Shown: one piece after another, positions 3,045 to 56,456 of the stretch
How positions within the stretch are numbered: the first letter of the stretch is position 1
How the letters are laid out: every line of letters starts with the position of its first letter
IMG/VR virus record: IMGVR_UViG_3300046787_000130
Location: 97,238-161,237 of that record
DNA: 64,000 nucleotides
Origin: a virus
Reading direction: 5' to 3' (one strand)
Position numbers and translations under genes: made by a program
The notes under the pieces: model-generated
Told to the model about the DNA's origin: nothing
Database searches by the model: none
Seen by the model: the letters and a program-made list of their open reading frames with translations, nothing else

Positions 3045-3079
3045 GTGCGGTGGTGAAAATCACCGCACTTTGCGTTTTT
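3045..3079 (+). terminator. Intrinsic terminator after hsp20
   Basis: GTGCGGTGGT-GAAA-ATCACCGCAC stem followed by T-rich tract. Confidence 0.8.
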
Positions 3080-3080
3080 G

Positions 3081-3150
3081 TAAGTGATTGATTTTACAGA
3101 AATTTTTCCTATCGACTTTTTTCTGGATTTCAGTACAATATAGGTATAGT
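3081..3150 (+). promoter_or_regulatory. Repeated early promoter copy 1 (IHF-consensus site + sigma70 -35/-10)
   Basis: TAAGTGATTGATT, TCGACT 3112, 16 bp, TACAAT 3134. Confidence 0.8.
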
Positions 3151-3349
3151 GAAAGTTAAGGGAAAAATGATGAAGACTGAAAAGCAGATTTTGGCTGAAA
3201 TTGCGCGCCTGCAGGCTCAACTTGATAGCATGAAAAAGCCCAAGATGAGCAAAGTGCGTCCGCTGTTTTCTGACAAGGACATCTGGATTGAGTCTGACAA
3301 AGTTGGCGGTTGCTGCGACCCGTCCACCGAAACTTACTGGTCAATGTAA
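3149..3349 (+). CDS. Hypothetical early protein (start probably at downstream ATG)
   Basis: ORF directly after promoter repeat; C-terminal CCDPSTETYWSM. Confidence 0.65.
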   Translation: MKVKGKMMKTEKQILAEIARLQAQLDSMKKPKMSKVRPLFSDKDIWIESDKVGGCCDPSTETYWSM

Positions 3350-3411
3350 GTGATTGATTTTACAAAAGAAAATCGCATTGACTTTTTCCTAGAATCCGGT
3401 ATTATATAAGT
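3347..3411 (+). promoter_or_regulatory. Repeated early promoter copy 2
   Basis: TAAGTGATTGATT, TTGACT 3378, 16 bp, TATTAT 3400, ATG 6 nt later. Confidence 0.8.
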
Positions 3412-3711
3412 ATGAAAAGCAAGTTCAAGCCGCTGCCGCGCAGCACCCGCCTCATCGTGGAATTCCACGATGGTATCCACAGCACCTACACCACCAAGGG
3501 TGACATCCTCAAGCAGAATGTCTTCAACCCGCGTGCCATGAGCCTGTCGCTCATCAACGCGCTGGCTGACTTGGAGGCAGACCGCAAGGCTGACTTTGAC
3601 AAGATAGGCACCATTGTGACCACCAACGCGATTGGTTACGTCACTGGTGTTGATGGCAAGCAGCACACCTACACTCTGGACATTTCCGCATACCGCATTG
3701 GGGGCAAGTAA
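3412..3711 (+). CDS. Hypothetical early protein (probably leaderless)
   Basis: ORF begins at predicted +1; GC-richer codon usage. Confidence 0.7.
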   Translation: MKSKFKPLPRSTRLIVEFHDGIHSTYTTKGDILKQNVFNPRAMSLSLINALADLEADRKADFDKIGTIVTTNAIGYVTGVDGKQHTYTLDISAYRIGGK

Positions 3712-24557: not shown

Positions 24558-25715
24558 ATGTTAAAGTTTACGCAGTTTATTACAGAGTCGCTTGAGACAG
24601 AAAAACTAACTCACCTAGAGCACGCAGAAGACCATCATATCAATGCTGGTAAGGCTGGCTTTAACCACGCAGTTAGAACTCTTGAAGCCGTACATAACAA
24701 ACTATCTGGCAAGAAGTCAGAAGCCGCTTTGACAACCAAGTATGATGGTTCCCCGTCCATAGTATTCGGACATCACCCAGAGAACGGAAAGTTCTTTGTA
24801 GCATCTAAGTCCGCATTCAATAAGAACCCTAAAATCAACTATACACCTAAAGACATTGACAAGAATCATGGTCATGCTCCTGGTCTAGTTGATAAGTTGA
24901 AGACTGCGCTCAAGCACCTACCCAAAGCAGCCCCTGGTCATGGCGTATATCAAGGCGACTTGATGTATACTAAGGGTGACGTAGAAGAACATGGCGGGTC
25001 ATACCATTTCAAGCCTAACACCATTACCTATTCCTCTAAGAAAGATTCTGATGAGGGCAAGAAGATTGGTAAGGCTAAGATTGGTGTTGTAGTTCATACC
25101 AAGTATGAAGGAAAGAACTTTGAAGATATGAAGGCAAAGTTTGCCCCTAAGTTGGGCGGATTTGCTGAACACAAAGATGTTCATATTATGGACCCTGAAA
25201 CAGACCACGAGAAGGTTCATTATACATCTGAGCAAAAAGATAAGTTTAATCATCATATCGAAAAGGCTAAGGCACTTGATGCTAAGCATGATTATGCTCA
25301 TCTAGAGGGTCATCAAGAGCATCTAAAGACCTATATCAACCAGACCGTCCGTACTGGTGATGCGCCTACTGTTGAAGGTCTAAAGGCTCATGTTACCGCA
25401 CTTCACACAAAGGCTGCTGAAAAATTAAAGACAGCAGCATCAAAAAGTAAGATTACCGATAAGATGAACAAGCATCTATCACATATTGATGCTAATGCTA
25501 AGGAGTTTAAGACAACCTTAGCAATTCATCACCACTTGCAAGCCGCCAAAGACCAACTGGTCAATGGATTATCATCTCACAGCACCTATGGTCATAGTAT
25601 CAAGGGTAAAGCGGCAAAACCAGAAGGATTTGTTGCCGTTATAGATAATAAGCCAACTAAGTTAGTTGACAGAGCAGAGTTCAGTAGAGAAAACTTTCTT
25701 GCGAGACCACGATGA
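24558..25715 (+). CDS. Conserved T4-like protein with ligase-type KxDG nucleotidyltransferase motif and capsid-targeting-like N-terminus
   Basis: MLKFTQFITE start; TTKYDGSP, QGD, PEGFV, KLVDR; CTAAATA upstream. Confidence 0.65.
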   Translation: MLKFTQFITESLETEKLTHLEHAEDHHINAGKAGFNHAVRTLEAVHNKLSGKKSEAALTTKYDGSPSIVFGHHPENGKFFVASKSAFNKNPKINYTPKDIDKNHGHAPGLVDKLKTALKHLPKAAPGHGVYQGDLMYTKGDVEEHGGSYHFKPNTITYSSKKDSDEGKKIGKAKIGVVVHTKYEGKNFEDMKAKFAPKLGGFAEHKDVHIMDPETDHEKVHYTSEQKDKFNHHIEKAKALDAKHDYAHLEGHQEHLKTYINQTVRTGDAPTVEGLKAHVTALHTKAAEKLKTAASKSKITDKMNKHLSHIDANAKEFKTTLAIHHHLQAAKDQLVNGLSSHSTYGHSIKGKAAKPEGFVAVIDNKPTKLVDRAEFSRENFLARPR

Positions 25716-27595
25716 AACACGCAGTCTTTACATTTGGTAGATTTAATCCTCCAACAGAAGCAGGACACGGCAAACTAGTAAATGCCGTTAAGTCTCATGC
25801 AGAATCAGTTGGCGGTGACCACTTCATCTTCCCATCCCATTCTCAGGATGCAAAAAAGAATCCTTTGTCTCATGAAGACAAGGTTTCTGCTATGCACAAA
25901 GTCTTCCCTAAGACAAACATTGTTAGCCATCCTGAAGTAAAGACTGCTATTCATGCAATGAAGCATCTTGAAAAGAAAGGATACACCCACGCAACAATGG
26001 TTGTTGGCTCTGACCGTGTTCCTGAGTTTAAGTCTTTGCTTGGCAAGTACAATGGCAAAGAGTACAACTTTAAGAAGATTCATGTCAAGTCAGCTGGCAA
26101 TCGTGACCCTGACGCAGAAGGCGCTGAGGGCATGTCAGCATCCAAACTTCGCGGTTTGGTATCAGCAGGAAAGCGTGATGAATTCATTAGTCATTACTCT
26201 AACAAGAAAGTTGGCGCTGAAATTCACGACAAGGTAAAGAAAGCAATGAAAGAACAAACAACTGCACCAATTGGTATCTTTTTGTTTGGTGGTCCTGGCA
26301 GCGGCAAGGATTATGTCCTCAAGAATATCTTCTCACGTTTTGACTTAACTGAAGTACAAGCCGACCAGCTGCTACAAGGTTATGCTGGTATTCTACTAGA
26401 AGATAACGCAAATATTGTTATCAACTGCTCAGCAGAAAATTCTGAACAGATTGAGACTATCAAGTCTATGCTGGGAGGTTATGAGTTTGACCATGTATAC
26501 GTTTCTGTATCAAACAAGGTCAGCCGTGAGCGTAATCAAGCCCGACTAAACCCACTACGGGAAGATGTTCGTATTGGCAAGATGCTCAAAGCCGAAAGAC
26601 TTGCTAAGTCTATTCCAGAAACATTTACCTTTAACAACTCATTAAATTTATCAGAATCCAGTGAGATGGAAAAGGTATTTTTTGCGTCGCAGATTCAAAA
26701 ACTGCTAGAGCGTGTAGTAGGAATGGGATTAGAGTTACAACAAACTCCCAGTCCAAAAAACTTTGCTAAGATAAGACAAGCATTAGGAGAAAATAATGTT
26801 CAAGTTTCTAAAAAAGGTATGGCATTGGCTGATGGGAAAGAAGGAGACTGTGCCTGCAGTGGAGGTGCCTCCGGCAGCCCCTGTGATTGTGGAGGCTCCT
26901 GTGGTTGCGCCGAGTGTGCAGGAACCAGTAAAGCCGTCAAAGAAGAAGCCAGCACAGTCAAAGTCCTCAACAGTCTCAAAAGCAAAATCAAAGCCAAAAA
27001 AGGTGTAGGACCAACAAACTATGATGGTAGACTTGGAATCAACATTGGATTGATTTCAGCTCCTACCGTTGTAGGCTCACCTACATCTACTTATGAGTCT
27101 ATACAGTATCATCTCAAGAACAACATTTCCTTTACCAAGAACATTTATCGTCCTGGTTCAGAAAAGTTCTTTGAGATGATTGACCATGCCCGTCAGTTGT
27201 ATCTTGAAGGCAAGTATCAGCCTGAAGATGAGTATGAACTTGAAGTCCTAGAAAGCAACATTGGCGAAATAGCCATGTATGAGGGCAAGCAAGTTGTACT
27301 TGATTTTCCTTTTGAAGTACTTGCTGAAGAGGGTTCTGACCCAACTAAGGGTCATGGAATTGGCAAGCCATTCCGTAAAGGTGGTGGCGGTGCAGTCTAT
27401 GTCAAGAGCGGTGATGGCGTCAAACTAGTTAACTTTAGTCAGTCAGGCATGACCAAGAAGTATAATGACCCAGGTCGTTTGAAGAGTTTTATGGCAAGAC
27501 ATCACTGCTTGACCAATAAGGACAAAACATCTGCGTCTTACTGGGCTTGCCGTTGGCCAAGATACTTCAGTTCAGGCGGTCAACAGTGGTGGTAA
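25712..27595 (+). CDS. Multidomain cytidylyltransferase-like (HxGH fold) + P-loop kinase + C-terminal domain
   Basis: FTFGRFNPPTEAGH, VVGSDR, SAG.RDPD, MSAS; GGPGSGKD; SFMARHHC...YWAC. Confidence 0.8.
   Translation: MKHAVFTFGRFNPPTEAGHGKLVNAVKSHAESVGGDHFIFPSHSQDAKKNPLSHEDKVSAMHKVFPKTNIVSHPEVKTAIHAMKHLEKKGYTHATMVVGSDRVPEFKSLLGKYNGKEYNFKKIHVKSAGNRDPDAEGAEGMSASKLRGLVSAGKRDEFISHYSNKKVGAEIHDKVKKAMKEQTTAPIGIFLFGGPGSGKDYVLKNIFSRFDLTEVQADQLLQGYAGILLEDNANIVINCSAENSEQIETIKSMLGGYEFDHVYVSVSNKVSRERNQARLNPLREDVRIGKMLKAERLAKSIPETFTFNNSLNLSESSEMEKVFFASQIQKLLERVVGMGLELQQTPSPKNFAKIRQALGENNVQVSKKGMALADGKEGDCACSGGASGSPCDCGGSCGCAECAGTSKAVKEEASTVKVLNSLKSKIKAKKGVGPTNYDGRLGINIGLISAPTVVGSPTSTYESIQYHLKNNISFTKNIYRPGSEKFFEMIDHARQLYLEGKYQPEDEYELEVLESNIGEIAMYEGKQVVLDFPFEVLAEEGSDPTKGHGIGKPFRKGGGGAVYVKSGDGVKLVNFSQSGMTKKYNDPGRLKSFMARHHCLTNKDKTSASYWACRWPRYFSSGGQQWW
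26796..27008 (+). CDS. Overprinted 70-aa protein inside 25712..27595
   Basis: SD AGGAG; amphipathic MFKFLKKVWHWLMG, Pro/Val linker, Lys-rich tail. Confidence 0.6.
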   Translation: MFKFLKKVWHWLMGKKETVPAVEVPPAAPVIVEAPVVAPSVQEPVKPSKKKPAQSKSSTVSKAKSKPKKV

Positions 27596-52233: not shown

Positions 52234-52427
52234 GTCTAGTTAAGTTGGATTGTTTTACTGATAGTGAATGGACTGAATATGTAAAGGAAGTTGTAGTTGT
52301 TAAGGCTGGCAAGACCTTTGATGTTTGTTCAGATTGTACGATTTGCTTTCAGCGAAAAATGCGAGAACAAGGACGATGTAACTTTCCCATGAAAAACCTG
52401 AAGAAAGTTGTTGAGTATCGTAACTAA
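52230..52427 (+). CDS. Small Cys-containing hypothetical protein
   Basis: CSDC..FQ..M...GRC. Confidence 0.6.
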   Translation: MSLVKLDCFTDSEWTEYVKEVVVVKAGKTFDVCSDCTICFQRKMREQGRCNFPMKNLKKVVEYRN

Positions 52428-52480
52428 TTGATTTGATGACGAAAAAAAAGTTTTACTTTTCACGCGAACTAGGGTATCAT
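52421..52480 (+). promoter_or_regulatory. Promoter of ncRNA/tRNA cluster with upstream IHF-consensus site
   Basis: TAACTAATTGATT; TTTACT-17bp-TATCAT. Confidence 0.55.
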
Positions 52481-52660
52481 TCTTATCTAACGTGAAAAAA
52501 GGGATATATATAGATATCCCACCACGAGTCCAAGTTGGCTTGTGTATGCTCTTTACAAAACAGATTCTCAAAGGGTGTCCCACTACCCGCCCCACCTACT
52601 AAAAACACTTGGGGCTGGATTGCGCATGCGGTCGGCTGAACATTCGTTTGGCTTAAATGT

Positions 52661-52719
52661 GGATATATCTCTGATGAGCCAGTGAGACTCTGGCGAAACA
52701 TATGGCTGTTGATGTATTT
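52661..52719 (+). ncRNA. Type I hammerhead ribozyme candidate
   Basis: CTGATGA-stem II GCCAG/CTGGC-GAAA, stem III ACA/TGT, GUU site, stem I GGATATATC/GATGTATTT. Confidence 0.6.
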
Positions 52720-52930
52720 TTGTTATGCTCCAGCCAGTGTAAGATAACAGCAAACATGACCTTGCGGTGTAATTTTGCTGATGCCTATAGGCAAGAGGAT
52801 GAATGATACATTGCTGATTGCCCAGTGCACTGCGCTTTCAGGTATCAAACGTAAACCGCATTGCGCGAGGACAGGCGCACTATAAATGTAGACCGCAGTT
52901 CTGATACTACAGAAAAAATCGGCATGATTT

Positions 52931-53005
52931 TGGCGCGTAGCACAATGGCAGTGCAAATGACTGTTAATCATTAGGTTGCTGGTTCGAATCCAGCCGTGCC
53001 AGCCA
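52931..53005 (+). tRNA. tRNA-Asn(GTT)
   Basis: Cloverleaf, CCA end. Confidence 0.93.
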
Positions 53006-53149
53006 GTTGATGATTAGACATAGACTGAGTGCGCTAGCAATGTCCAATTTGGGTGCGAAGCCCAATACTTTTTTCGCAACAGCAAGACAGGGGTCGCGCC
53101 CAGTGCCTAGTGTCAAGTGCTTGTCGGTTGACATGTTGCGTTTTTATTT

Positions 53150-53233
53150 GCGCGAGTGGTGTAATGGCAGCCACGACGGTCTTAGAAGCCGTTGCCGAAA
53201 GGCGTGAGAGTTCGAGTCTCTCCTTGCGCACCA
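53150..53233 (+). tRNA. tRNA-Leu(TAG)
   Basis: Cloverleaf, long V-arm, CCA. Confidence 0.93.
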
Positions 53234-53255
53234 ATTTTGTTTCTCTAGTTTAGAG

Positions 53256-53579
53256 GTGTTTGTTATGGGCTGCAACCCGTTTCTCAGAGGGTCAGATTTT
53301 ATTCCGCCATCGATATTGATGCGAAATTCCGTTAACCCAGACCCTTCTTCTTTTAAAGTAAAAAAGGTTTACACAGCCAATGAACTATTTGTCTCATTGG
53401 TAAATTACCCCAACTGTACAACATTTGAGGGCAATAAGATATTAGTTACGAATTACGATGTTAGAGAAAAAATCAAACTTGACCCACATTTTCATAATGG
53501 CAGTGGTCTAATAGCAAGATTTGAACCTACAGATACAGGCTGGGAAGCCGCTGTATGGTTCGTCACTAATGCCACATAA
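53256..53579 (+). CDS. Hypothetical protein within tRNA cluster
   Basis: NPDP..F...YPNCTTFEGNKIL...LDPHF...ARF.P...GW. Confidence 0.65.
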   Translation: MFVMGCNPFLRGSDFIPPSILMRNSVNPDPSSFKVKKVYTANELFVSLVNYPNCTTFEGNKILVTNYDVREKIKLDPHFHNGSGLIARFEPTDTGWEAAVWFVTNAT

Positions 53580-53586
53580 GTTTAAT

Positions 53587-53661
53587 GGTCCCATCGTCTA
53601 GCGGTCAGGACATCACCCTTTCACGGTGATGACACGGGTTCGATTCCCGTTGGGACTACCA
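53587..53661 (+). tRNA. tRNA-Glu(TTC)
   Basis: Cloverleaf, CCA. Confidence 0.93.
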
Positions 53662-53668
53662 ATTTTAT

Positions 53669-53756
53669 GGAGAGTTGCCAGAGAGGCTAATTGGCGCTGT
53701 TTGCTAAACAGATGGACGTAATCGTCACACAGGTTCAAATCCTGTACTCTCCGCCA
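53669..53756 (+). tRNA. tRNA-Ser(GCT)
   Basis: Long V-arm, G73, CCA. Confidence 0.92.
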
Positions 53757-53763
53757 AGTTTAC

Positions 53764-53840
53764 GGGATAGTGGCACAGTTGGTTAGCGCAGACGCTTGAT
53801 AAGCGTCAGGTCGAAGGTTCAAGTCCTTCCTATCCCACCA
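53764..53840 (+). tRNA. tRNA-Ile(GAT)
   Basis: Cloverleaf, CCA. Confidence 0.93.
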
Positions 53841-53855
53841 ACTATATAAAGTATT

Positions 53856-53930
53856 GGGCTGTTAGTGATAATGGGAGCACGTCGCGTTTGCATCGCGAAG
53901 GTGAGAGTTCGATTCTCTCACGGTCCACCA
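53856..53930 (+). tRNA. tRNA-Ala(TGC)
   Basis: G3:U70 pair, CCA. Confidence 0.92.
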
Positions 53931-53933
53931 AAT

Positions 53934-54042
53934 TTGATTGTTTGTAAGCCACAGGCACGCAACGCCTGAGTAACTGCGCCAAAAGAAAACTTCAGTTCTA
54001 GACTCCTGAAGGTGAGACGCAGCAAATAGTGCAAACAATCAA
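53934..54042 (+). ncRNA. Structured RNA candidate
   Basis: 12-bp closing stem TTGATTGTTTGT/GCAAACAATCAA with internal stems. Confidence 0.5.
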
Positions 54043-54069
54043 CCTAACGTGCCATCTAGTCAATGGCTA

Positions 54070-54266
54070 GTCTACCCAGACGATGAGAAGCGGTGTGATA
54101 ACCGTAGGGTGGTTCCAGTCTAACCGAACTGGCGTTGGCAACACGACAGTCCTGTATGGGTCGAGGAGTGGATGGAAGGTAAGAGCGTGGTGTTAGTCGA
54201 GCGGGTGAAAACCAATGCATGGAATACACCTAGTGATACTATAGTTACCACCGCATACAGGAAGCA
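54070..54266 (+). ncRNA. Multi-stem structured RNA candidate
   Basis: TCCTGTATG/CATACAGGA long-range stem, several hairpins incl. GNRA loops; no ORF. Confidence 0.55.
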
Positions 54267-54270
54267 ATTT

Positions 54271-54355
54271 GGGTGAACGCCGAAGTTGGAGAGTCGGGGC
54301 AGACTGTAAATCTGTTGTTTAGGCTGAGTAGGTTCGAATCCTACTTCACCCACCA
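54271..54355 (+). tRNA. tRNA-Tyr(GTA)
   Basis: Long V-arm, CCA. Confidence 0.92.
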
Positions 54356-54361
54356 TATTAT

Positions 54362-54435
54362 GGGAGTGAAACATTAAAGTGATGTAACGGACTTTTAATC
54401 CGTAAAAGAGGGAGCATTACCCTCCACTCCTACCA
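54362..54435 (+). tRNA. tRNA-Lys(TTT), atypical T-loop
   Basis: ACGGA-CTTTTAA-TCCGT; T-loop AGCATTA; CCA. Confidence 0.85.
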
Positions 54436-54445
54436 CCTTAAAATA

Positions 54446-54534
54446 GGGACTAAAGCCGTATTGGTCGCAGGCAGCGAACTCATAATTCGTCCTCTTAAAG
54501 AGCATTCTCGGTTCGAACCCGAGTGGTCCCACCA
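54446..54534 (+). tRNA. tRNA with CAT anticodon and long variable arm (Ile2 or Met, identity uncertain)
   Basis: GCGAA-CTCATAA-TTCGT then CCTCTTAAAGAGCATT V-arm; CCA. Confidence 0.85.
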
Positions 54535-54549
54535 ACTATATAAAAGTAT

Positions 54550-54626
54550 CGGGCATTAGCACAGACTGGTAGTGCGTCTGCTTTGGGAGCAGAAGGTCAC
54601 AGGTTCAAATCCTGTATGCCCGACCA
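54550..54626 (+). tRNA. tRNA-Pro(TGG)
   Basis: Cloverleaf, CCA. Confidence 0.93.
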
Positions 54627-54635
54627 ATTTACAAT

Positions 54636-54719
54636 GCGAGTGTGATGGAATGGTATACATAGCAGACTTAAAATCTGCCGCTTTCGGGCTTGCGGGTTCG
54701 AATCCCGCCACTCGTACCA
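54636..54719 (+). tRNA. tRNA-Leu(TAA)
   Basis: Long V-arm, CCA. Confidence 0.93.
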
Positions 54720-54725
54720 TATTGA

Positions 54726-54799
54726 GCAGAGTTGGCATATTGGTTGTGTCCCAGTCTTCCAAACTGGCTAAACGGGTTCGATTCCCGTACTCTGCTCCA
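54726..54799 (+). tRNA. tRNA-Gly(TCC)
   Basis: U73, CCA. Confidence 0.92.
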
Positions 54800-54805
54800 A
54801 GTTTA

Positions 54806-54882
54806 GACTCCGTAGTTCAGTTGGATAGAACAACAACCTTCTAAGTTGTGGGTCACAGGTTCGAATCCTGTCGGGGTCGCCA
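54806..54882 (+). tRNA. tRNA-Arg(TCT)
   Basis: Cloverleaf, CCA. Confidence 0.93.
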
Positions 54883-54896
54883 ATACAGGAAATAGC

Positions 54897-55319
54897 ATGG
54901 ACATCACTAAAGAAGATATGATGAAGCGTCATGCTATTGCTTACCCTATGGAAGTAGGTGCGCCAAAGTTTGACCTAGTTCCTGTTGAGAAAGAAAAAGA
55001 CCAGATGATAAACATTGCTAGGCTAAGTGCTCAGCAAGAGTATGACAGGATTATGGAAGTTGTTGCTGTGTTGCAGAAGCAAGCAGATGGAATTAAAAGA
55101 CGCCTAGATATAACTGATATGGTCTACAACGCCAAGTATAATTTTAAGATTATTCCCGGCAAGACTTATTATTTGATTTTTCAAAAAAGAAAGAGTATAA
55201 TGATACTGTCTCCAATGGGACCAAATGATTGGTCTAGTGGACCACCAGTAGATTACGAATACAAAGCCAAGGTAGTTTGCTTAGGTGACTACTCTTGGAT
55301 GGAAGATACACGCTCTTGA
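54897..55319 (+). CDS. Hypothetical protein (DUF2452-like)
   Basis: YPMEVGAPKF...AKYNF....GKTYYL...LSPMGPNDW...D.SW; SD AGGA. Confidence 0.65.
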   Translation: MDITKEDMMKRHAIAYPMEVGAPKFDLVPVEKEKDQMINIARLSAQQEYDRIMEVVAVLQKQADGIKRRLDITDMVYNAKYNFKIIPGKTYYLIFQKRKSIMILSPMGPNDWSSGPPVDYEYKAKVVCLGDYSWMEDTRS

Positions 55320-55387
55320 AGCATTGCTGGCGATGCGCGGGATTTGTAACCCCGAGATAGACTGTTCGATTCAGTCCGAGAGCACCA
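55312..55387 (+). tRNA. tRNA-Thr(TGT)
   Basis: Cloverleaf, CCA; overlaps upstream stop codon. Confidence 0.88.
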
Positions 55388-55469
55388 ATCGCGACGGTTC
55401 TACCATCGTTAATCGGTAGCGCAGTCTTGGCTGCGAGAAAAGTCCCTTGACGACGACCAAGATTTATTT

Positions 55470-55544
55470 GTTGCTGTGGTTGAGTGGTTAGACAGCTGAC
55501 TGCAAATCAGTTTCACGCAGGTTCAAATCCTGTCAGCAACTCCA
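55470..55544 (+). tRNA. tRNA-Cys(GCA)
   Basis: U73, CCA. Confidence 0.9.
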
Positions 55545-55560
55545 CCTATATAGAATGTAT

Positions 55561-55634
55561 GCCTCGTTAGTTAAATGGTATAACTCCGCTTTTACACGGC
55601 GGTTTCGGCAGTTCGATTCTGTCACGAGGTACCA
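55561..55634 (+). tRNA. tRNA-Val(TAC)
   Basis: Cloverleaf, CCA. Confidence 0.92.
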
Positions 55635-55640
55635 AACAGT

Positions 55641-55715
55641 TGCAGGATAGTTCAGCAGCAGAACACCGGACTCATAATCCGGGGGTCACGGGTGCGAGTC
55701 CCGTTCCTGCTACCA
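55641..55715 (+). tRNA. tRNA-Met(CAT), initiator-like
   Basis: 1:72 mismatch (T:T), CCGGA/TCCGG anticodon stem, CCA. Confidence 0.85.
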
Positions 55716-55719
55716 CTTT

Positions 55720-55793
55720 GCGGGTATGATGTAATGGTTGCCTGTGACCTTGCCAAGGTTATCGTGCGAGTTCGATTCTCGCTACCCGCTCCA
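55720..55793 (+). tRNA. tRNA-Gly(GCC)
   Basis: U73, CCA. Confidence 0.92.
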
Positions 55794-55829
55794 TTTTGAG
55801 AATCTGTTTTCCTATTTAAGGATGAATAT

Positions 55830-56252
55830 ATGAAACGTTTGCTTGCTACACTAGCCTTAATCCCATCTCTTGCTCTTGCTGAAGAGCCCAGCAAGTGGAC
55901 AACATTTACAAAGATGCCTGATGGCACGGTTTGGGAGTTCAAGAACAACTCTCTAAATGTAATTACTAACGACAGCAAGCAGATGTTTTGGATTGTTCAG
56001 TTTAGAACACACCAAGCGGGCAAGACGGTCTTTAATTTTGTAAAGGTTGCTGTTCCAGTAACTGCATGTAAGGTTCAGTCTGGTCAACTTGTTCTTGTTG
56101 GTATGGACAACGTTGAAAAAGCAAAGATTGACTTTGTATTTGACGGTGGCACTCTTGCGTCAAACATTGCGCAATCCGTCTGCCGTGCTGGCGACAAGGT
56201 ACTACAAAAGTATGCTGAAGAAGCAGAGAAGCCTGCTGAAGTAAGTACTTGA
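55830..56252 (+). CDS. Secreted/periplasmic hypothetical protein
   Basis: Signal peptide MKRLLATLALIPSLALA; two Cys. Confidence 0.75.
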   Translation: MKRLLATLALIPSLALAEEPSKWTTFTKMPDGTVWEFKNNSLNVITNDSKQMFWIVQFRTHQAGKTVFNFVKVAVPVTACKVQSGQLVLVGMDNVEKAKIDFVFDGGTLASNIAQSVCRAGDKVLQKYAEEAEKPAEVST

Positions 56253-56277
56253 CTCTTCAAGCAAACAGATATATAAT
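56249..56277 (+). promoter_or_regulatory. Sigma70 promoter before tRNA-Gln
   Basis: TTGACT-17bp-TATAAT. Confidence 0.8.
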
Positions 56278-56287
56278 TATCGTATAT

Positions 56288-56361
56288 TGAGGGGTCGTCT
56301 AACGGCAGGACGACGGACTTTGAATCCGTCTATCTAGGTTCAAATCCTAGCCCCTCAGCCA
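56288..56361 (+). tRNA. tRNA-Gln(TTG)
   Basis: U1-A72, G73, CCA. Confidence 0.93.
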
Positions 56362-56366
56362 TTTAA

Positions 56367-56456
56367 GGATGTGTGCCAGAGCCTGGTTTAATGGAACGGT
56401 CTTGAAAACCGTCGATGGGAAACCATCCGTAGGTTCGAATCCTACCACATCCGCCA
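56367..56456 (+). tRNA. tRNA-Ser(TGA)
   Basis: Long V-arm, G73, CCA. Confidence 0.93.

Follow-up and report, generated by a model that had tools for sequence, protein, structure and literature searches.

Thousands of hammerhead ribozymes are known in bacteria and phages, and the purpose of most of them is unknown. In RiboJ-type synthetic insulators, a hammerhead placed behind a promoter strips the variable 5' leader and leaves one defined 5'-OH end; RiboJ itself was engineered from the type III hammerhead of a plant satellite RNA and is used before mRNAs. Phage T4 carries a tRNA cluster that includes stable small structured RNAs, species 1 and 2 (rnaC and rnaD), of unknown function, which are cotranscribed with the tRNAs and cut from the precursor. 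Host enzymes, RNase P among them, are credited with these cuts, and we know of no ribozyme in the T4 cluster. Yet another fold is that of the theta ribozymes, an HDV-like nested double pseudoknot.

Phage hammerheads have been suggested to divide long transcripts into smaller units (Perreault et al., PMC3088659). The same paper notes that, in the haloviruses HF1 and HF2, the major transcript has its mapped 5' end no more than three nucleotides from the ribozyme site of the hammerhead variant HHphage (PMC3088659). For the HDV-like theta ribozymes, the cleavage site is often adjacent to a tRNA, and Kienbeck et al. (2024, PMC10879173) discuss them as an alternative route to tRNA 3' ends.

Here, we describe a candidate hammerhead from a virus record in IMG/VR. 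The window, by which we mean the whole stretch of DNA analyzed, is the last 64 kb of this 161-kb record. The DNA polymerase of the record is of the T4 gp43 type and has about 51% identity to cyanomyovirus polymerases, which identifies the source virus, on sequence grounds, as an uncultured T4-like phage. An initial annotation had noticed a hammerhead core and assigned it to the processing of a tRNA transcript. Taken as a whole, its observation was partly confirmed and its interpretation partly supported, with the catalytic core and stem II standing and the rest of the architecture being replaced. Our analysis indicates that the stretch 52666-52746 is probably a canonical type I hammerhead self-cleaving ribozyme, located in the leader of the phage's tRNA operon.

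RESULTS

All genes around the locus are carried on the + strand. Downstream, ARAGORN predicts 19 tRNA genes at 52931-56456, with tRNA-Asn first. Rfam adds a tRNA at 54362-54432 (43.5 bits) that is absent from the ARAGORN list, and with this call included the cluster may have 20 genes. The hammerhead locus is found within a gene-free gap of 503 nt that extends from the end of a 65-codon open reading frame (52427) to tRNA-Asn. When compared with cultured phages by blastn, the region gave matches to the tRNAs only and to nothing else. The features assigned to the gap and its downstream border are collected in Table 1.

Table 1. Predicted features of the tRNA operon leader, in window coordinates.
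Feature	Position	Strand	Basis or remark
Sigma-70-like promoter, TTTACT-17-TATCAT	52452-52480	+	Pattern scan, consensus match only
5' leader domain: four-way junction, CCAC 52580-83/GUGG 52659-62, three hairpins	52580-52662	+	RNAalifold
Stem I, 5' strand UAUCU; U52670 = position 2.1	52666-52670	+	Pairs with AGAUA 52742-46
Catalytic core C3 U4 G5 A6 U7 G8 A9 (CUGAUGA)	52671-52677	+	Read directly; invariant in 12/12
Stem II, GCCAG 52678-82/CUGGC 52690-94 (G10.1-C11.1), 7-nt loop UGAGACU	52678-52694	+	Covariation
Catalytic core G12 A13 A14	52695-52697	+	Invariant in 12/12
Stem III hairpin; proximal ACAU 52698-701/GUGU 52737-40, bulged A52702, UGGCUG 52703-08/CAGCCA 52731-36; distal weak AU/GU-rich hairpin 52709-30	52698-52740	+	Covariation; ensemble pair probabilities 0.71-0.97
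Predicted cleavage nucleotide H17 = A, triplet GUA; predicted scissile bond 52741/52742	52741	+	
Stem I, 3' strand AGAUA; A52742 = position 1.1, first bases of the predicted 3' product	52742-52746	+	
Conserved structured RNA of ~122 nt, closed by UGCGGU 52763-68/ACCGCA 52855-60	52742-52863	+	RNAalifold
tRNA-Asn(GUU), first of 19-20 tRNA genes	52931-53005	+	ARAGORN, Rfam

Homologous loci were collected by two routes, namely through relatives (66-93% identity) of a 120-residue protein encoded 440 nt upstream, and through an 18-mer located 15 nt downstream of the element. Neither the protein nor the 18-mer overlaps the ribozyme. The resulting alignment contains 12 distinct loci across the region, all from uncultured T4-like relatives on contigs that originate from lakes and sediments, and about ten of the loci are distinct inside the ribozyme. 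Because the 12 sequences are mutually 82-95% alike, invariance alone is weak evidence, and the case for a hammerhead rests on compensatory changes. Downstream of the ribozyme, tRNA-Asn was present in 8/8 homologous loci scanned for tRNAs. When more distant homologs were sought via P0017, P0012, and P0015, the contigs stopped soon after the gene, short of the expected position of the element. A search of viral contigs with the pattern ATCTCTGATGAG...CGAAACA returned, besides the known relative, only chance matches within genes, and the pattern CTGATGAG-N17-CGAAACAT retrieved other hammerheads and zero further members of the family. Small open reading frames overlap the element, and indels of 1-3 nt in the homologs argue against their being coding.

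Motif, fold, conservation, covariation, and synteny were established computationally, and at the level of sequence the candidate carries every mark of the hammerhead class. Three helices (I, II, and III) join the core with hammerhead strand connectivity, and all 11 core nucleotides, together with the G10.1-C11.1 and A15.1-U16.1 pairs and a position 17 other than G, are present at 12/12 loci. The CUGAUGA, the stem II, and the GAAA named in the initial annotation are all there. In addition to the invariant CUGAUGA, the GAAA (52695-98) is unchanged in 12/12 homologs, and stem II occurs among them in three versions (GCCAG/CUGGC, GUCGG/CCGAC, and GCUGG/CCAGC), such that three pairs have changed on both sides with 100% of cells paired.

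Stem III is more variable. It has ten proximal pairs and continues into a weaker distal hairpin. Across the alignment, the ten proximal pairs (counted without U52703-A52736) are 100% paired, despite a change from C-G to U-A in five sequences, from G-C to A-U in one, and from U.G to U-A in one (L041). Furthermore, a C-G pair has been inserted on both strands together in five sequences. These five homologs appear aberrant under the fold of the initial annotation; here, their stem III reads GGUUGC/GCAACC, in which the inserted C and the inserted G form the new pair. In L035 the stem reads GACUG/CAGUC. Likewise, the change of G52733 to A is offset within stem III by that of C52706 to U, and not by the outer strand of the earlier fold. 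At the base of the helix, A15.1-U16.1 corresponds to A52698-U52740 and is invariant among the 12 homologs.

Position 17 is A in ten homologs and C in two (L017 and L023, giving GUC), and it is never G. Within the 9-nt block GUGU-N-AGAU it is the only variable site, the rest being invariant. Stem I, which has 5 bp and is AU-rich, is paired in 12/12 sequences but invariant and hence lacks covariation, whereas stems II and III carry compensatory substitutions. In the 12-sequence alignment as a whole, 233/233 pair cells of the type I model are standard pairs, with five pair changes on both sides (three in stem II and two in stem III) plus the one coinserted C-G. When the partners were slid by 1-3 columns as a control, 26-39% of cells were paired, and the covariation score of the model was reached by no shuffle. 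In hammerheads, a tertiary contact between stems I and II, through their loops or as a pseudoknot, makes cleavage fast at cellular Mg2+. The geometry would suit such a contact between loop II and stem I, given a 5-bp stem II with a 7-nt loop and a 5-bp stem I that leads into unpaired strands, with the four-way-junction helix 3 nt off. In the homolog alignment, no covarying partner of loop II was found for such a contact. Similarly, no pairing consistent across homologs was found for an extension of stem I beyond 5 bp or for a pseudoknot of loop II with the flanking strands or with the conserved GAUUCUCA block.

The hammerhead fold, stem I included, is the minimum free energy structure of 52635-52750. 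The same is true for two homologs, and in the others the fold lies 0.1-4.1 kcal/mol above the optimum. In a 201-nt context, it lies 3.1 kcal/mol above the predicted optimum; stem III has pair probabilities of 0.71-0.97, whereas the ensemble probability of stems I and II is low. The latter two are lowered by a competing pairing of an upstream UCUCA with loop II, which is specific to the sequence of the window and unconserved among homologs.

We searched the 64-kb window with a type I pattern that required the core and GAAA, a minimum of 4 bp each in stems II and III, an A-U pair to open stem III, any base but G at position 17, and 5 bp or more in stem I. The pattern found one site, with its core at 52671 and H17 at 52741, and had 0 matches in 400 simulated first-order Markov windows. 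The core part alone (CUGAUGA, hairpin, and GAAA) occurred 0.01 times per simulated 64-kb window on both strands. Because of this rarity, the 12/12 invariance, and the compensatory changes in stem II, the core and stem II are more than chance.

The initial annotation had proposed the Rfam hammerhead models as a check, and this proved to be of limited use. At gathering thresholds, a scan of the window returned tRNAs only. Under permissive E-value cutoffs, the best match was to Hammerhead_3 (RF00008), at 24.5 bits versus a gathering score of 48.5, and was aligned as type III with stem I deleted, an alignment that we rejected because the deletion cannot give an active fold. For the type I model (RF00163), there was no match at E<=10 in the whole 161-kb genome. 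However, the models miss clean control hammerheads as well: four other phage loci (L003, L004, L006, and L008, the ones that were scanned) had no match at gathering either, and one of these four, a textbook type I example, scores only 20.8 bits. The scores therefore measure the reach of the models and not the fold. A covariance model built on the type I fold detects just one copy in the 161-kb genome. Unrelated phage hammerheads, several of which have a long stem III, align to this model in the same topology, at 42.8 bits for L004, 39.4 for L006, 28.8 for L008, 30.7 and 29.9 for L054, and 28.8 for L060.

The hammerheads found by pattern on unrelated viral contigs include one of type III (L003) and several of type I (L004, L006, L008, L054 with two copies, and L060). 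In the five whose sequence was examined in full, loop II starts with UG and stem II is GCCAG/CUGGC. No tRNA gene lies within the DNA fetched for these contigs. A different arrangement was seen at L065:3430-3600. There, the interval that separates a tmRNA gene (3045-3416) from 10 clustered tRNA genes holds a CUGAUGA-stem-GAAACAU core, preceded at 35 nt by a promoter of consensus sequence (TTGACA-17-TATAAT). Attempts to fold this core as a cis type I hammerhead failed, with G falling at position 17, and the core may represent a relative that has decayed or is wired differently.

Other arrangements of the window's own sequence were tried and rejected. A K-turn or C/D-box-like reading of UGAUGA...GA fails at the C helix beside the 3-nt bulge, where U4-A14 is followed by mismatches. 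In a trans or split hammerhead with the upstream hairpin 52501-20 as substrate, C15.2 would be left without a partner, and the hairpin is missing in several homologs. A double-hammerhead dimer via the palindrome CAUAUG (52699-704) was dismissed, as the stem III region as a whole is not palindromic. Finally, shifting the register of the initial annotation's stem I suits some homologs, but the distal hairpin of stem III accounts for the same changes.

Upstream of the core, at a distance of 138-195 nt, there is a TTTACT/TTGACT-17-TATNAT site in 11/11 homologs that reach that far, so the tRNA operon probably has its own promoter. The site is kept even where the surrounding leaders cannot be aligned, and it would place the start of transcription in the window near 52487. 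The first 100-130 nt behind the promoter (52428-52560 and homologous stretches) come in at least three unalignable versions, each with its own hairpins. In the 5' leader domain that follows, RNAalifold with 10 homologs gives 25 pairs, of which three have changed on both sides (for example, GCCCCA/UGGGGC to GCCUCA/UGAGGC). The four-way junction ends 3 nt before stem I. In L035 and L041, a different, unrelated sequence takes the place of this domain.

Downstream of the predicted cut, the conserved RNA of about 122 nt has 31 pairs, five of them changed on both sides (RNAalifold, 12 homologs), and it has no Rfam match at E<=10. Inside it, YUUGCU (52773-78) can pair with either AGCAAR (52749-54, with an A-U to G-C change on both sides) or GGCAAG (52789-94), and these alternatives could be a switch. 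A palindrome, CAGUGCACUG, is also found inside this RNA at 52822-31. The hairpin modules at 52864-52925, between the 122-nt RNA and tRNA-Asn, are missing in L015 and L017, in which there is hardly any gap before the tRNA. Among the relatives, the distance from cut to tRNA ranges from ~128 to 471 nt, with spacers that differ by whole modules, as if cassettes had been swapped. The position at the head of the operon, behind a promoter-like site, is kept in all of them.

DISCUSSION

From the comparative evidence, we infer a transcription start, a cleavage event with its end chemistry, an RNase P step, and a biological purpose. Transcription from the sigma-70-like promoter (start at ~52487) would yield a structured leader. 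Once 52731-52746 emerge, stem III (52698-52708/52731-52740) and the 5-bp stem I (52666-70/52742-46) would close a three-way junction that encloses the core, that is, CUGAUGA, stem II, and GAA. As is standard for hammerheads, A52741 would then attack its own 3' phosphate through its 2'-OH, with G12 (52695) serving as the general base and G8 (52676) as the general acid. The products would be a leader of ~255 nt ending in a 2',3'-cyclic phosphate and an RNA that starts with a 5'-OH on A52742. In this way, the cut would set the 5' end of the conserved 122-nt structured RNA. Host RNase P, acting at the 5' end of tRNA-Asn as general tRNA biology would predict, would free the small RNA on its 3' side, and both the small RNA and the tRNA precursor would become independent of upstream sequence. 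The initial annotation had likewise held that a hammerhead processes the tRNA/ncRNA transcript. That part of its reading stands, as the motif heads the operon in every relative found and processing is the natural interpretation, but the architecture that it proposed for the task does not.

The proposed architecture, also of type I, shares its core with ours. It pairs GGAUAUAUC (52661-69) with GAUGUAUUU (52711-19) as stem I, which leaves U52670 as an extra, bulged base; it shortens stem III to the three pairs of ACA (52698-700) and UGU (52707-09); it cuts after GUU 52708-10 (52710/52711); and it nests the element, given as 52606-52740, in an outer stem of ACACU..GGCUGGA (52605-19) and UCCAGCCAGUGU (52729-40). 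Each of these complementarities exists in the window. The fold even ranks first in prediction for a transcript that stops at 52728, and again for 52600-52745, where the real stem I is cut short. Yet as the transcript grows, it keeps this rank only short of 52731; at full length it trails the hammerhead fold of Table 1 by 4.9 kcal/mol, and its ensemble probability is ~0. The homologs speak against it as well. Its A15.1-U16.1 pair is broken in 5/12 of them, its position 17 would be G in L022, L033, and L039 (UGCUGU), and in L017 and L023 (UGCUU) a C is inserted into the 3-bp stem. Neither its stem I, which has mismatches at three positions, nor its outer stem has a single pair changed on both sides. 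In the outer stem, G52733 to A creates an uncompensated C-A mismatch in 4/9 distinct sequences, and the 5' strand is occupied by two hairpins, one of which (GCCCCA/UGGGGC) has a both-side change while the other has one-sided changes only. Moreover, the fold requires a noncanonical insertion beside C3. We therefore consider this architecture highly improbable and place the predicted cut 31 bases further downstream. The earlier span ends one base before the predicted cleavage nucleotide and misses the 3' strand of the true stem I. The doubts that had been raised about activity, from the inserted U and the short stem III, were both artifacts of the pairing chosen: in the supported fold, U52670 pairs with A52742 as a regular position 2.1, and there is no bulge. 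An argument could also be made that a hammerhead-like string arose by chance in noncoding DNA. The Rfam score is sub-threshold, and its E value comes near 1 if extrapolated from the 551-nt search to 64 kb and all families. Nevertheless, the full pattern never appeared in the 400 simulated windows, the core is conserved at 12/12 loci with compensatory changes, and synteny is conserved. As far as computation goes, the comparative data refute the chance reading, and we attach a negligible probability to it.

The remaining alternatives accept the fold but question its activity. The element could be a noncleaving, hammerhead-shaped module, in which a three-way junction with tandem G-A pairs serves as a structural or protein-binding part of the leader and no scission occurs in vivo. 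Such a role would fit with a stem I that is short and invariant, with the absence of an identified tertiary contact, and with a location between two other conserved structured domains. Furthermore, hammerhead-like RNAs that are inactive appear in published surveys (PMC3088659, Figure S7 legend). However, those examples are mostly off the core consensus or in unexpected genetic contexts, whereas the element described here matches the consensus fully. A scaffold would not need C3, G5, A6, G8, G12, A13, and A14 all to be unchanged along with the A-U pair at 15.1-16.1, and position 17 varies between cleavable bases only. We find a noncleaving module quite unlikely. Alternatively, the hammerhead could be gated, with other pairings holding it off until a signal or the end of transcription, so that removal of the leader is conditional. 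Regulated cleavage has been proposed for phage hammerheads (PMC3088659), and two helices are candidates here, 52655-69/52711-25 and ACACU 52605-09/AGUGU 52736-40, possibly along with the 5' four-way junction. The complementarity of both helices is kept (94% and 96% of cells paired), and the former is what the nascent transcript is predicted to fold into as far as 52728. Even so, neither helix has changed on both sides, L035 and L041 keep the ribozyme without the 5' domain sequence, and no conserved loop resembling a ligand pocket was identified. In addition, the active fold is already the optimum for 52635-52750, and its 3.1 kcal/mol deficit in the 201-nt context arises without invoking the alternative helices. 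We regard gating as unlikely.

A broader version of the gated reading can be formulated in which promoter, four-way-junction domain, hammerhead, 122-nt RNA, and tRNAs make up a composite cassette. There, the 5' domain and the alternative pairings would gate cleavage, so that the element would be a conditional hammerhead of natural origin. The 5'-OH and 2',3'-cyclic-phosphate ends would label the released small RNAs for a particular fate, for instance evasion of decay that depends on the 5' end, or processing by phage end-healing or sealing enzymes. While we regard this as improbable, it would, if true, provide a hammerhead of a bacterial virus with a defined regulatory job. Genes for end-healing or sealing enzymes, which had been suggested near 24558-27595, were not confirmed. 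In that region, a 385-residue open reading frame (24558-25715) has a strong match to DUF6267 (351 bits), and an adjoining one (25712-27595) has P-loop kinase-like matches that are weak and sub-threshold.

Returning to the preferred reading of a cleaving type I hammerhead, the fixed position of the element among a promoter, two folded RNAs, and a tRNA cluster gives the cut one clear consequence, which would be to fix where a small RNA and the tRNA precursor begin. From such a fixed position, the question of what a hammerhead does becomes directly testable. In the literature that we searched, no paper placed a hammerhead at the front of a tRNA operon in a T4-like phage, and the element would thus represent a known ribozyme class in a context for which we found no description. 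In addition, because Rfam thresholds miss this and other clean phage hammerheads, the frequency of such ribozymes in phage RNA-gene clusters is probably underestimated.

Among described systems, the closest are the type I hammerheads of bacteria, prophages, and phages (Perreault et al. 2011, PMC3088659; Rfam clan CL00010, RF00163). The core is identical, stem I is open, stems II and III are hairpins, and the triplet is GUA or GUC. As with the phage members, the position is intergenic within a phage polycistronic unit, and type I hammerheads on unrelated phage contigs have a similarly long stem III and a similar loop II beginning with UG. Unlike the type I members of Rfam, this element lies below the gathering score of every Rfam hammerhead model (clan CL00010: RF00163, RF00008, RF02275, and others). 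It differs further in that it heads a T4-like cluster of 19-20 tRNA genes between two conserved structured RNA domains, in that it is a single copy and not one of several flanking a gene, and in that no pseudoknot or loop contact between stems I and II was identified. The HHphage of HF1 and HF2 shares the proposed logic of leader removal, since it, too, lies in a 5' leader, that of an early polycistronic transcript. However, it is a structural variant that precedes a helicase mRNA in an archaeal virus, whereas here a canonical core precedes noncoding RNAs and tRNAs.

The theta ribozymes, to which the initial annotation had drawn an analogy, are likewise small self-cleaving RNAs associated with phage tRNA genes, and a role in the maturation of tRNA transcripts has been proposed for them (PMC10879173). 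Only the tRNA neighborhood carries over. The class is different, an HDV-like nested pseudoknot as opposed to a hammerhead three-way junction, and the region 52400-52950 has no Rfam match to HDV-like families at E<=10; the element is not a theta or HDV-like ribozyme. Whereas theta ribozymes often cleave next to a tRNA, the element described here would do so 189 nt ahead of the first one and would give another RNA its 5' end. With the T4 cluster, the operon has in common that tRNAs and small structured RNAs occur together, although outside the tRNAs blastn detected no similarity to cultured phages. Finally, the logic proposed here is like that of RiboJ, with the difference that RiboJ is engineered, leads an mRNA, and is of type III origin.
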